Shown here piece by piece: positions 35,320 to 37,437 of a stretch of DNA of 64,000 nt. The notes below the pieces were generated by a model, which did no database searches, was not told the DNA's origin, and saw nothing but the letters and a program-made list of their open reading frames with translations. The translations under genes and the position numbers were made by a program. Origin of the DNA: Candidatus Omnitrophota bacterium (lineage in GTDB: Bacteria > Omnitrophota > Gorgyraeia > JABMRG01 > JAFGKX01); contig JAZDPX010000006.1 of NCBI GenBank assembly GCA_043797125.1, positions 70,921-134,920 on the forward strand, written 5' to 3'. Positions within the stretch are counted from its first letter, which is position 1, and every line of letters begins with the position of its first letter.

Positions 35320-37437
35320 TTACGCTGCCTGGTCTAAGGCCTGGAGGGATTTTTTCTCTTTTATCTGCTCGAGGACATTAAGGAAAGATGCCTTTGTATC
35401 AATTTCATACTGCTTTTTGAATTTGATTTTCTGGAGCGTATCAACTAATTTTTGCGGCAGTTTATCCGCTTGTTCCTTCAAATCTATCCATTCAAGGGTT
35501 TTTAAATAATATTTATATAACTTGGAATCCTCGGACGTAATATCTCCATGGAGAACTTTCGTAATTTCAGAATCTTCAAAATCATCCGCTGTTAAATCTT
35601 TATAAATATATCCTGTGTTTCCGTCAAGCGTAATAGCCTCTCCCGCATTAAGTCTTGCGATTTCTTTTTTGTCATTATCTTGTATACTAAGGATGCCTTT
35701 TTCTGGTATCTCTCCGTATAACACAACATAAGGTATTCGTTTATTACTCTTTCTAATACCCTCTGCTACGTGGTCAAAGAGCCCCCCCCTCAAAGATATA
35801 ATTCCCGGAATATTATATTTCAAAATGCGTTCCTGGTATGGACCGATCATTGCTTCTGCTATGTGTGCGGTTACGTCTCTGCCGCTGCTTTCGGCTTCAT
35901 TAATCAAAAGCATTAAACAAATATGATCAGGTAATAAATCCATTCCCTCATTCTTTTTCGCGCCAATTCCTTCAAAAGGGTTTGGAATAACCGGGATGCA
36001 GCCTTTTAATAGTAATTCGTTTCTATCATCTCCTATGCTAACCTCAGCGGTCGCTATGCCCGGAAAAAGCGACGCGCCCCAAGCGATTGCCTTACCCTGA
36101 CTTTCTTTTTTAACAACAGGCTGCTCAAAGTAACTCTTAAGCCACTCCAAATCAGCTAATGAGATTTTTTCAAAAGCCTCTGATTCGTTCAGTATGCCTT
36201 CTTCTGCTAAATCAACTAAAGTGCGCGCTTGCGCCAATGGCGTTGTTGTATCCAAAGCATCTCGTGTCTGAACAATCCATAATTTGCCGGCAGATACAAC
36301 TATTTCAACATGCTGAATGCTCTTTTGATGTGCTTCTAATATTTTTATATAATTCAGGAGTTGTTTATAAATTTCAGGATGGCTATTTTCTAAATCCTTA
36401 TATTGCTTTTCTATTTCTCGTCTTACTCCTCTGGCCCCGTCTCCTAACTCAGCATATGGGGTAACGATAGAACTTCCGTCTACTGCAAATTCATAGTTTC
36501 CAACAATCCCCGGCTCTCCTGTAAAAGGGCTTCTGGTGCATAAGACGCCGCTTAACGACTTACCATCGTTTATATTGCCGAAAACCTGCCATTGGACATT
36601 AATTCCTCCTGTCAACTCATCGGTGTCCGTGTATATAAATGTATACTTGCCCCTGTTTTTTGTATATGAATTAGCGACCGCTGTTATTGCCTCTTTTAAT
36701 TGCTGCTTTGGATCCGAGAAATCGTGTTTAGTCATCTTTTTATATTCTTCTTCCACTTTTAATAATACCTCTTGTAATTTTTCAAAATTGATACGTTTTT
36801 TAAGCCCTTTACAAGCAGCGCAATTTAAATCACTATAATAGATTTTGTTGTTAGTTAATATTTTAAAAATTGAATCCGATTCTCTGTGGTTATCAACACA
36901 ACTTATGTAATCATAAATATATCTGATATATTCCAAATATGCCTGGTAACGGTCTCCTAATATCTGCGCATATGCATCAATATTGCTTCTATGCAGCCCT
37001 ACTTTATTTATTGTACGATATTCACCTGGTTTTGATTTTACAGCGCCCGCCCTGACTGCCAAAAGCATAAAATTATCCGAAGAACCATATTTTAATTTTT
37101 TACCTTCTTGCCGGGATGCTTTTTCCTCAATCCTTACCAGCCCACTTTCTATGTGTGGCCATAATGCTTGGTTAATTTCGTGATTTTCAATAATATCTTC
37201 TACCTCTTCATACGGTATCGTAAAACCCGCAGGCACAGGAAGCCCTAGATTAGTCATCTCCGCCAAATTAGCGCCTTTATTCCCTAAAATGTCCTTCATG
37301 TCTATTGAGCCGTCTGTATGGTCGCCGCCAAAATCATAGACGCGCTTGCCGCATTCTTCTGCTATCGGGCGCAAGGCATAACCCGGCTGAGACATCGCCA
37401 ACACAATCACTATTAATATCGTTATTATTTTTCTCAT
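35320..37437 (-). CDS. Signal-peptide-bearing PPDK/PEP-synthase-like dikinase (ATP-grasp plus phosphohistidine swivel domain) that lacks the PEP/pyruvate TIM-barrel domain; LRP motif family
   Basis: The N-terminus is [56 protein letters not shown]...KPG and [10 protein letters not shown] match PPDK N-terminal motifs. [11 protein letters not shown]...[12 protein letters not shown] matches the PPDK phosphohistidine segment, with the His retained. The protein ends about 80 aa later. Confidence 0.6.
   Translation of the reverse strand: [705 protein letters not shown]

Follow-up and report, generated by a model that had tools for sequence, protein, structure and literature searches.

A signal-peptide-like leader on a PPDK-derived protein without the PEP/pyruvate domain in Candidatus Omnitrophota

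The stretch of DNA analyzed here, referred to as the window, comprises 64,000 nucleotides (nt) of contig JAZDPX010000006.1 from a Candidatus Omnitrophota bacterium (assembly GCA_043797125.1). Its minus strand encodes, at 35320–37437, a protein of 705 amino acids (aa) that is derived from pyruvate phosphate dikinase (PPDK), lacks the phosphoenolpyruvate (PEP)/pyruvate-binding domain (PBD) of that enzyme, a TIM barrel, and begins with a leader resembling a secretion signal. The product is identical to NCBI protein P0001 from a Candidatus Omnitrophota metagenome-assembled genome (MAG), where it is labeled 'PEP/pyruvate-binding domain-containing protein'. An initial annotation, made from the sequence alone, had described a PPDK homolog with ATP-grasp and phosphohistidine swivel domains behind a hydrophobic leader; here, we examine that description and consider what such a protein may do. 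The gene is composed of the following features:

35320–37437, minus strand: PPDK-derived gene without PEP/pyruvate domain, 705 aa, with its stop codon at 35320–35322
37448–37453, minus strand: Shine-Dalgarno-like GAAAGG, read from the sequence, 10 nt 5' of the ATG at 37437
37375–37437, minus strand: Sec-type signal-peptide-like leader, residues 1–21, assigned by inspection
37366–37374, minus strand: LRP motif, residues 22–24, at the predicted mature N-terminus, from tripeptide counts and relatives
36238–37347, minus strand: ATP-grasp nucleotide-binding domain, approximately residues 31–400, from profile, PDB matches and model
36082–36237, minus strand: first linker, approximately residues 401–452, with the clade-specific motif TPLAQ and a second 12-residue motif
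35593–36081, minus strand: phosphohistidine swivel domain, approximately residues 453–615, from profile, model and alignment
35770–35772, minus strand: codon of His556, equivalent to His455 of C. symbiosum PPDK, within RGGLFDH (RGGMTSH in PPDK)
35323–35592, minus strand: second linker (DSEITKV...YYLKTLEWI, approximately residues 616–655) and a low-confidence helical tail of about 50 aa

Inspection of the sequence found no Shine-Dalgarno site comparable to GAAAGG ahead of the internal Met15. Within approximately residues 470–538 of the swivel domain lies a low-confidence insert of about 33 aa that is peculiar to this protein. The initial annotation rightly noted that the protein stops early, at a point it placed about 80 aa past the swivel domain; the count is 90 aa. 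Some 40 of these form the conserved linker that connects to the TIM barrel in PPDK, where the barrel would follow at this point.

Homology to PPDK was found over the whole of the protein's first two domains and stopped at the barrel. Among the three Pfam models that the initial annotation had proposed as a check, PPDK_N (PF01326) matched the 705-aa protein with an E value of 1.3e-14, the PEP-utilizers domain (PF00391) remained sub-threshold (E 0.096; 12.7 bits against a cutoff of 23.1) and the PEP/pyruvate TIM barrel (PF02896) gave no match. The NCBIfam PPDK equivalog TIGR01828 aligned through positions 2–407 of its 865 with residues 31–471, scoring 226.2 bits, which is under the curated equivalog cutoff of 843.45, and PPDKs of known structure in the PDB matched with E values of 3e-47 to 3e-41. 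The query and its three closest relatives were combined into a profile (A1), which aligned without a break to residues 8–513 of C. symbiosum PPDK (E 5e-89). The central PPDK domain on its own, 2fm4, was likewise matched (E 1.7e-4), which shows true homology of the swivel domain to that of PPDK. The AlphaFold2 model had a mean per-residue confidence score (pLDDT) of 72 and a global score (pTM) of 0.77, with most of the ATP-grasp domain above 90, the swivel domain at 64–88, and residues 470–538 and 656–705 below 50. Foldseek matched this model to PPDK 1kbl with an E value of 8e-37 over 634 columns.

Searching the window with full PPDKs (tblastn) aligned their residues 6–566 to 37347–35482, and the last 370 aa of four PPDKs, which form the TIM barrel, had no match in any frame of the whole 64 kb (best E 0.37). 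A split or frameshifted barrel elsewhere in the window was rejected on the same search. Both halves of the domain reading thus held: the motifs quoted in the initial annotation are all present, as are profile and model support and the conserved histidine, and the TIM-barrel domain is missing by PF02896 and tblastn alike. Without the barrel, the protein cannot make or use PEP.

Catalytic residues were mapped through an alignment to the C. symbiosum PPDK chain. K22, R92, G101, E323, Q335, R337 and H455 of PPDK correspond to K54, R129, G138, E378, Q390, R392 and H556 of the query, and all seven are invariant across the 17 clade members examined (see below) and 45 canonical PPDKs, which indicates purifying selection on ATP-dependent histidine phosphorylation. 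K22 is essential for both PPDK and rifampin phosphotransferase (RPH) (PMC4844700), and the PPDK mutants K22A, R337A and T453A have been crystallized. Around these positions the active site has changed. D321 of PPDK is replaced by H376, a histidine found there in the query alone; the PPDK stretch SMPGMMDT reads SKPGEYRT in the query, with M103 changed to Tyr or Phe throughout the query's own subclade (subclade A, see below); and another active-site stretch reads VDGSSIV in subclade A. The regulatory Thr453 of PPDK is not conserved, and Ser454 has become Asp in 10 of 11 subclade A members, giving a D-H motif instead of S-H.

The relatives that share this architecture are few. A word-indexed search of 5.8 billion proteins returned only three close ones (705, 856 and 747 aa; 34–42% identity), all with PF01326 as their only match of this kind, the remaining matches being full-length PPDKs at about 30% identity. 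Searching 1.84 billion representatives exhaustively with a profile added about 20 proteins at 320–670 bits, compared with at most about 300 bits for ordinary PPDKs, and PF02896 was found in none of these 20 or so. Family-specific peptide patterns identified only three loci in 185,579 species genomes (one MAG each of Elusimicrobia, Omnitrophota and Planctomycetales), and in JGI metagenomes only five true family loci (L018–L022) were recovered; the metagenome scan otherwise returned mostly ordinary PPDKs at 23–28% identity, through the common TLDGNTGxIY pattern. Named clade members belong to Omnitrophota, Elusimicrobia and candidate division FCPU426, with the Planctomycetales locus in addition.

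In a neighbor-joining tree of 537 columns, with 45 PPDKs for comparison and 100 bootstraps, the clade (A+B) split from the PPDKs in 96 of 100 replicates, and subclade A, to which the query belongs, was recovered in all 100, nested within a more PPDK-like grade B. On this topology, the TIM barrel appears to have been lost once, with rapid divergence afterwards; mean identity among clade sequences is about 31–39%. The query carries the motifs of subclade A: S.PG.[YF].T, GLH, TPLA, L[EW]WLK.Y.E.P, [AS]DH, RIPY and DSE[IV]TKV. Both hinge linkers hold clade-specific motifs (TPLA, LEWLK.Y.E.P and DSE[IV]TKV...YY..L.WI), and this conservation suggests that the His domain still swivels toward something.

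Clade proteins range in length from 654 to 5061 aa, and the module occurs either standalone or within giant proteins. In the longer relatives it is accompanied by TPR repeats, CheR- or DOT1-like methyltransferases, a common helical domain of about 250 aa, or long unknown regions. The module of the Planctomycetales locus is embedded in an open reading frame (ORF) of more than 4113 aa (L017, 14–12355), and three of the five metagenome loci (L020, L021 and L022) place it inside ORFs longer than 6500 aa. By eye, the L017 ORF also contains LbH, LysM with a YkuD transpeptidase, P-loop kinase and HAD modules beside the PPDK-like one, set apart by recurrent hydrophobic segments of the type GG.xxLLxLxGGLFFAMAG.

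In the Elusimicrobia MAG (L012, 5–14311; L015, 38–10031), three consecutive large ORFs of 1334, 1099 and 1436 aa, of which the third is PPDK-like P0121, have a common N-terminal leader of about 60 aa, LLVAC[LM][SA]AQTATA[GS]YE[FS]RAMSNESK[VI]CSGVL[CS]HQLITRNSAL.... Directly upstream in L012, an 897-aa ORF has a signal-like N-terminus that bears only a general similarity, and the 793-aa ORF at that place in L015 has no such leader. The 1099-aa neighbor contains, by eye, Nudix-like, RelA/SpoT-like and Cys-peptidase-like stretches together with internal hydrophobic segments. Signal-like N-termini were also seen in some full-length PPDKs that have the TIM barrel and an extra C-terminal PEP-utilizer-like region (P0224, P0185, P0237 and P0147), and the P0224 motif LPVPG...FDFMVDPGD recurs in P0123.

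The N-terminus of the query was assessed by inspection against rules for Sec signal peptides cleaved by signal peptidase I (a positive n-region, an h-region of 7–15 residues, and small residues at −3 and −1), and it agrees with all of them: the n-region is MRK, the h-region has 12 residues, and the c-region SQPGYA places G at −3 and A at −1 ahead of LRPIAEE. R2 and K3 precede the hydrophobic core, a helix-breaking Pro is present, and the flank after the core is net negative. Such features are classical for Sec signal peptides that are cleaved, and from them the body of the protein is predicted to be exported. A hydrophobic N-terminal segment occurs in 15 of the 18 clade members with an informative N-terminus, compared with 1 of 160 canonical PPDKs, and several members have textbook cleavage sites (AQA/F, AFA/A and ATA/G, the slash marking the cut). 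Across the clade, 0 to about 180 residues separate the leader from the enzyme core, so what is conserved is a leader in its own right rather than a piece of the enzyme.

The LRP motif that follows the leader, also singled out in the initial annotation, proved to be a shared and enriched feature of the window. LRP occurs 10 times in the 63 crude genes of the window, and five of these occurrences lie at residues 22–42 of proteins with a hydrophobic N-terminus, encoded on the minus strand at 4034–5443, 5472–6332, 35320–37437, 37481–38980 and 50223–53219. In an unbiased count of tripeptides at residues 16–45 of hydrophobic-N-terminus proteins LRP ranked top, at 5 occurrences compared with an expected 0.14 (P = 4e-7), and all five proteins have a signal-like N-terminus followed within 0–15 residues by LRP[VIA][SA]. 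Relatives of the 705-aa protein read LRVP, LRVP, LAPP and SLRPMA at this place. No Pfam or NCBIfam model matches the motif, and in the literature no description of an Omnitrophota signal-peptide LRP motif was found. The four other LRP proteins are orphans or lack Pfam domains; homolog searches with the one encoded next to the PPDK-derived gene (an HExxH protein, see below) and with the 469-aa one each returned nothing beyond the protein searched with. The tag may be a lineage-specific sorting or processing signal. The window also encodes a Rce1/CPBP-family intramembrane protease (351 aa, hydrophobic N-terminus, 11910–12965, minus strand), conceivably a candidate processor of LRP leaders.

Three further features flank the gene directly:

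37481–38980, minus strand: upstream gene of 499 aa, 43-nt gap, with a leader followed by CLRPVA, an HExxH motif (HENGH) and a weak match to the DUF6866_N/Sfum_1244 family
39013–39041, minus strand: promoter-like TTGACT-17-TAAAAT (with TG), a consensus match only, 5' of the two-gene unit
33958–35207, minus strand: downstream pair of a DUF6036 nucleotidyltransferase (NTase; 34623–35207, 194 aa) and a 222-aa protein (33958–34626) with a 4-nt overlap

The 499-aa HExxH protein is an orphan whose leader resembles that of the kinase gene (…EAFC followed by LRPVA). In the NCBI annotation the gene starts at Met20 and encodes 480 aa, which leaves out the hydrophobic segment; the 499-aa reading has the promoter-like site ahead of it and restores a leader and LRP motif resembling those of its neighbor. 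Because that promoter-like site precedes the 499-aa gene, it and the PPDK-derived gene are probably co-transcribed. The DUF6036 NTase gene lies 112 nt downstream, and the pair, with a promoter-like site of its own, is probably under a separate promoter; the 222-aa protein has no domain match, and the two genes look like a toxin-antitoxin-type pair. A HEPN/NTase pair and a recombinase were observed close to P0132 (L014), a relative from Omnitrophota.

The HExxH and NTase neighbors are thus present as the initial annotation stated, and the association is not kept in relatives: the contigs of the closest homologs, about 3 kb, contain no DUF6866 or NTase neighbor, and the genes around the Elusimicrobia, Omnitrophota and Planctomycetales loci are unrelated. 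We claim no functional link to either gene, as these neighbors do not recur beside relatives. A phmmer search for Rosetta-stone fusions, comparing the window neighbors and LRP proteins with 270 family and PPDK proteins, returned nothing below an E value of about 0.03. The guanine-cytosine fraction of 33.9–39 kb is 0.33–0.42, compared with about 0.42–0.46 in the flanks, a hint of an accessory island that gained no backing from tRNA genes or flanking repeats, none of which were found at 33.9–39 kb. Exact-protein look-ups aimed at following the contig past the window matched no record.

Elsewhere in the window, two sets of genes resembling type II secretion or type IV pilus components were observed on the minus strand. 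The first (56300–63980) contains GspF (61773–63017), three pseudopilin-like genes (59353–60752), GspK (58326–59348), a PilM/PilN fusion (56860–58341) and a GspM/PilO-like gene (56300–56860). The second (627–3204) contains PilM (1690–3204), PilO (1115–1708) and a T2SSB-like gene (627–1118), and the LRP proteins at 4034–6332 lie directly upstream of it. Between 38980 and 39431, a nested inverted repeat at 39160–39372 (plus strand) has outer arms of 13 nt (100% identical) and inner arms of 32 nt (84%); region 39150–39400 folds as RNA with −115.9 kcal/mol (z = −6.85 against shuffles) and is followed by a terminator-like hairpin and T-run. The element is single-copy in the window, and the search of Rfam returned nothing at E ≤ 1; it may represent a small RNA, or else a palindromic element. 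A tmRNA gene (54797–55233, minus strand; 153 bits) encodes the tag peptide ADTIRAKVMEVVPVNTGMVSMMPLAA.

PPDK, a textbook swiveling-domain enzyme, works via three partial reactions, an established scheme credited to Evans and Wood (1968) and Herzberg (1996). In the first two partial reactions ATP pyrophosphorylates the histidine and the His-PP then passes a phosphoryl group to phosphate (Pi), forming pyrophosphate (PPi) and leaving His-P, both at the ATP-grasp domain, and in the third the phosphoryl group is transferred from His-P to pyruvate at the TIM barrel (Minges 2017, PMC5371819). The first two PPDK domains suffice to load the histidine from ATP, as has been shown for VadK, a truncated PPDK of M. 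tuberculosis (PMC13400623). We give about an even chance to the reading in which the query is an intact, Sec-exported, His-autophosphorylating PPDK-derived module whose acceptor is provided in trans and which acts outside the cytoplasm of its producer. The clade would have arisen from PPDK by loss of the TIM barrel, keeping the ATP-grasp domain, both linkers and the swivel domain. In the chemistry that homology with the first two PPDK partial reactions and with VadK makes most likely, Mg-ATP would bind the grasp domain, His556 would become pyrophosphorylated or phosphorylated with AMP and PPi or Pi as products, and the His domain would then swing off on its conserved linkers. Because there is no acceptor domain in cis, with only the insert of about 33 aa and the tail of about 50 aa lying beyond the PPDK-homologous parts, the phosphoryl group would pass to water or to some partner or substrate supplied in trans. 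With its leader (MRK, a 12-residue core, and GYA cut before LRP), the protein would cross the inner membrane. At least five leader-bearing proteins with an LRP tag, this one included, are encoded in the genome, which also has type II secretion components, and the protein would act at the cell surface, in the milieu, or in a host or prey cell. Of this reading, the data establish the architecture, the conserved catalytic residues, membership of the clade, the conserved leader and the LRP enrichment; the rest, from export and autophosphorylation to a trans-supplied acceptor and the site of action, is inferred.

An ATP-grasp enzyme behind an export leader is a paradox, as the initial annotation recognized, in that ATP must be supplied outside the cytoplasm. 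A host-dependent or predatory lifestyle has been proposed for Omnitrophota, and it is possible that the exported protein acts where ATP exists, either at or within a host or prey cell or where ATP has been released, which fits the leader, the LRP set, the type II secretion genes and the proposed lifestyle. Several points weigh against export of an active enzyme. We know of no ATP source in the bacterial periplasm; the swivel domain taken alone is below the Pfam threshold and was modeled with only moderate confidence; and the change of D321 to His in the query might weaken Mg-ATP chemistry. One clade member, P0273 (MKRKENKKRR...), is leaderless, and by inspection the hydrophobic segments flanking the L017 Planctomycetales module have their Lys/Arg-rich flanks toward the module, which therefore is predicted to form a cytoplasmic loop there, so the module is not always extracytoplasmic. 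Lastly, no conserved partner gene was found around relatives.

Some of these points fit better with a cytoplasmic, VadK-like regulatory histidine (di)kinase whose N-terminus is merely an inner-membrane tether facing the cytoplasm, or whose true start is Met15, an explanation that we consider unlikely but deserving of serious weight. It would meet the need for ATP, it agrees with VadK, which is taken to be cytoplasmic, and with both P0273 and the predicted cytoplasmic loop in L017, and the NCBI start of the neighboring gene at an internal Met likewise drops a hydrophobic segment; the authors of a 2026 preprint on giant proteins of Omnitrophota likewise do not settle this question of topology. 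However, R2 and K3 before the core and the net negative flank after it favor an N-terminus inside and a body outside, a core of 12 residues is short for a stable anchor, and the Shine-Dalgarno site precedes ATG1 rather than Met15. The hydrophobic N-terminus is also conserved in the clade even though its spacer to the core is not. The cytoplasm-facing membrane anchor that the initial annotation had offered as one solution is disfavored by the same placement of positive charges N-terminal of the core.

Its other solution, delivery into another cell, corresponds to a more specific form of the export reading, in which the LRP leader marks cargo of a host-dependent or predatory cell and the module is a secreted effector using the victim's ATP on His556. 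We regard this as improbable, to about the same degree as the cytoplasmic kinase. Secretion could proceed, for example, via the type II system of the window, followed by phosphorylation of a host target or by the burning of ATP to AMP, and the cassette, which also occurs within giant proteins from Planctomycetales, Elusimicrobia and Omnitrophota, would then be a reusable 'ATP-driven phosphoryl donor' module in effector arsenals of this kind.

A lower probability is assigned to an exported pseudoenzyme, that is, a protein of the periplasm or cell surface that binds a nucleotide, phosphate or a partner. Such a protein would need no ATP in the periplasm, and the divergence of subclade A (the altered SMPGMMDT, VDGSSIV, the lost regulatory Thr, Ser454 changed to Asp, and D321 changed to His in the query) is in its favor; still, the invariance of K22, R92, E323, Q335, R337 and H455 in 17 members that are only about 31–39% identical is hard to account for without catalysis. 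Less probable again is a dikinase like RPH or glucan water dikinase (GWD), with a small molecule or polymer acceptor bound by the protein itself. The initial annotation had drawn this parallel, and the common logic of ATP-grasp and swiveling His, the fold-level RPH match, and the helical (about 250 aa), methyltransferase or TPR modules beside the module in longer relatives all speak for it. The query nevertheless has no third domain, its insert being disordered and its tail short, and its domain order is PPDK-like, not RPH-like (PMC4844700), with NCBIfam PEP-synthase and RPH models reaching only E ≥ 3e-7 on about 45 residues; the fold-level likeness stood, and the parallel gave way to VadK as the closer one. 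A truncated ppdK pseudogene, which the initial annotation had also raised, is effectively refuted, for although the C-terminal third of PPDK is missing, the 705-aa ORF is intact, no TIM-barrel remnant exists anywhere in the window, and 17 relatives spread over four phyla show the same architecture, truncation point and linker motifs, with the catalytic residues invariant.

On the reading of an exported histidine-phosphorylating module, the protein would be a test case for a wider Omnitrophota puzzle, namely that domains needing cytoplasmic cofactors are found behind signal peptides. It is a tractable one, involving one 75-kDa protein, one leader and one well-understood ATP-dependent reaction. 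The clade is rare (about 20 clusters in 1.8 billion representative proteins), comes from poorly known phyla, and usually lies behind a secretion-type leader or within giant membrane-associated proteins. Its architecture has a precedent; it is the export signal, the LRP tag and the reuse in giant proteins that give it value as a compact test case, and the tag may be a clue to a sorting signal not yet described.

Exported enzymes that use extracellular or host ATP, outside the cytoplasm of their producer, are known, such as secreted nucleoside diphosphate kinase (Ndk), which works via a phosphohistidine, and anthrax edema factor. Their folds are unrelated to that of the query, and no evidence of host delivery was obtained here. 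RPH and PEP synthase-type dikinases share with the query the phosphotransfer logic from ATP-grasp domain to swiveling His to acceptor, but RPH is only a fold-level match (Foldseek E 7e-7, compared with 8e-37 for PPDK 1kbl), and the matches to NCBIfam models of both types are confined to the short stretch noted above. RPH consists of the ATP-grasp domain, a rifampin-binding domain and a C-terminal His domain, whereas the query has the PPDK order and no acceptor domain (PMC4844700). GWD is more distant from the query than VadK. With PPDK itself (EC 2.7.9.1; TIGR01828; PDB 1kbl, 2x0s and 5jvl), the query shares about 30% identity over about 620 residues, and the ATP-grasp domain with its PPDK-specific subdomains, both linkers and the central phosphohistidine domain are all homologous; it differs in lacking the PEP/pyruvate TIM barrel, in having an N-terminal leader, and in its altered active-site neighborhood.

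The closest precedent is VadK (Rv1127c) of M. tuberculosis, the only characterized analog of this PBD-less histidine (di)kinase type. VadK autophosphorylates on His422 with ATP and Mg, interacts with methylcitrate-cycle enzymes and acts through partner proteins, and it was only recently shown to be a regulatory histidine kinase (PMC13400623). In contrast to the query, with its secretion-type leader and Omnitrophota origin, VadK is taken as cytoplasmic, as no description of a leader was found for it and its partners belong to the methylcitrate cycle. The query's truncation is probably independent of that in VadK, because the query scores higher on full PPDK (226 bits) than on the short 'PPDK' model NF004531, which reached 154.1 bits against a cutoff of 456 and aligned only through positions 22–370 of 534. 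The clade probably represents a second PBD-less PPDK-derived lineage besides VadK, independent of it and much more divergent, and VadK, having the same architecture of ATP-binding and phosphohistidine domains, provides the best functional model for the query.

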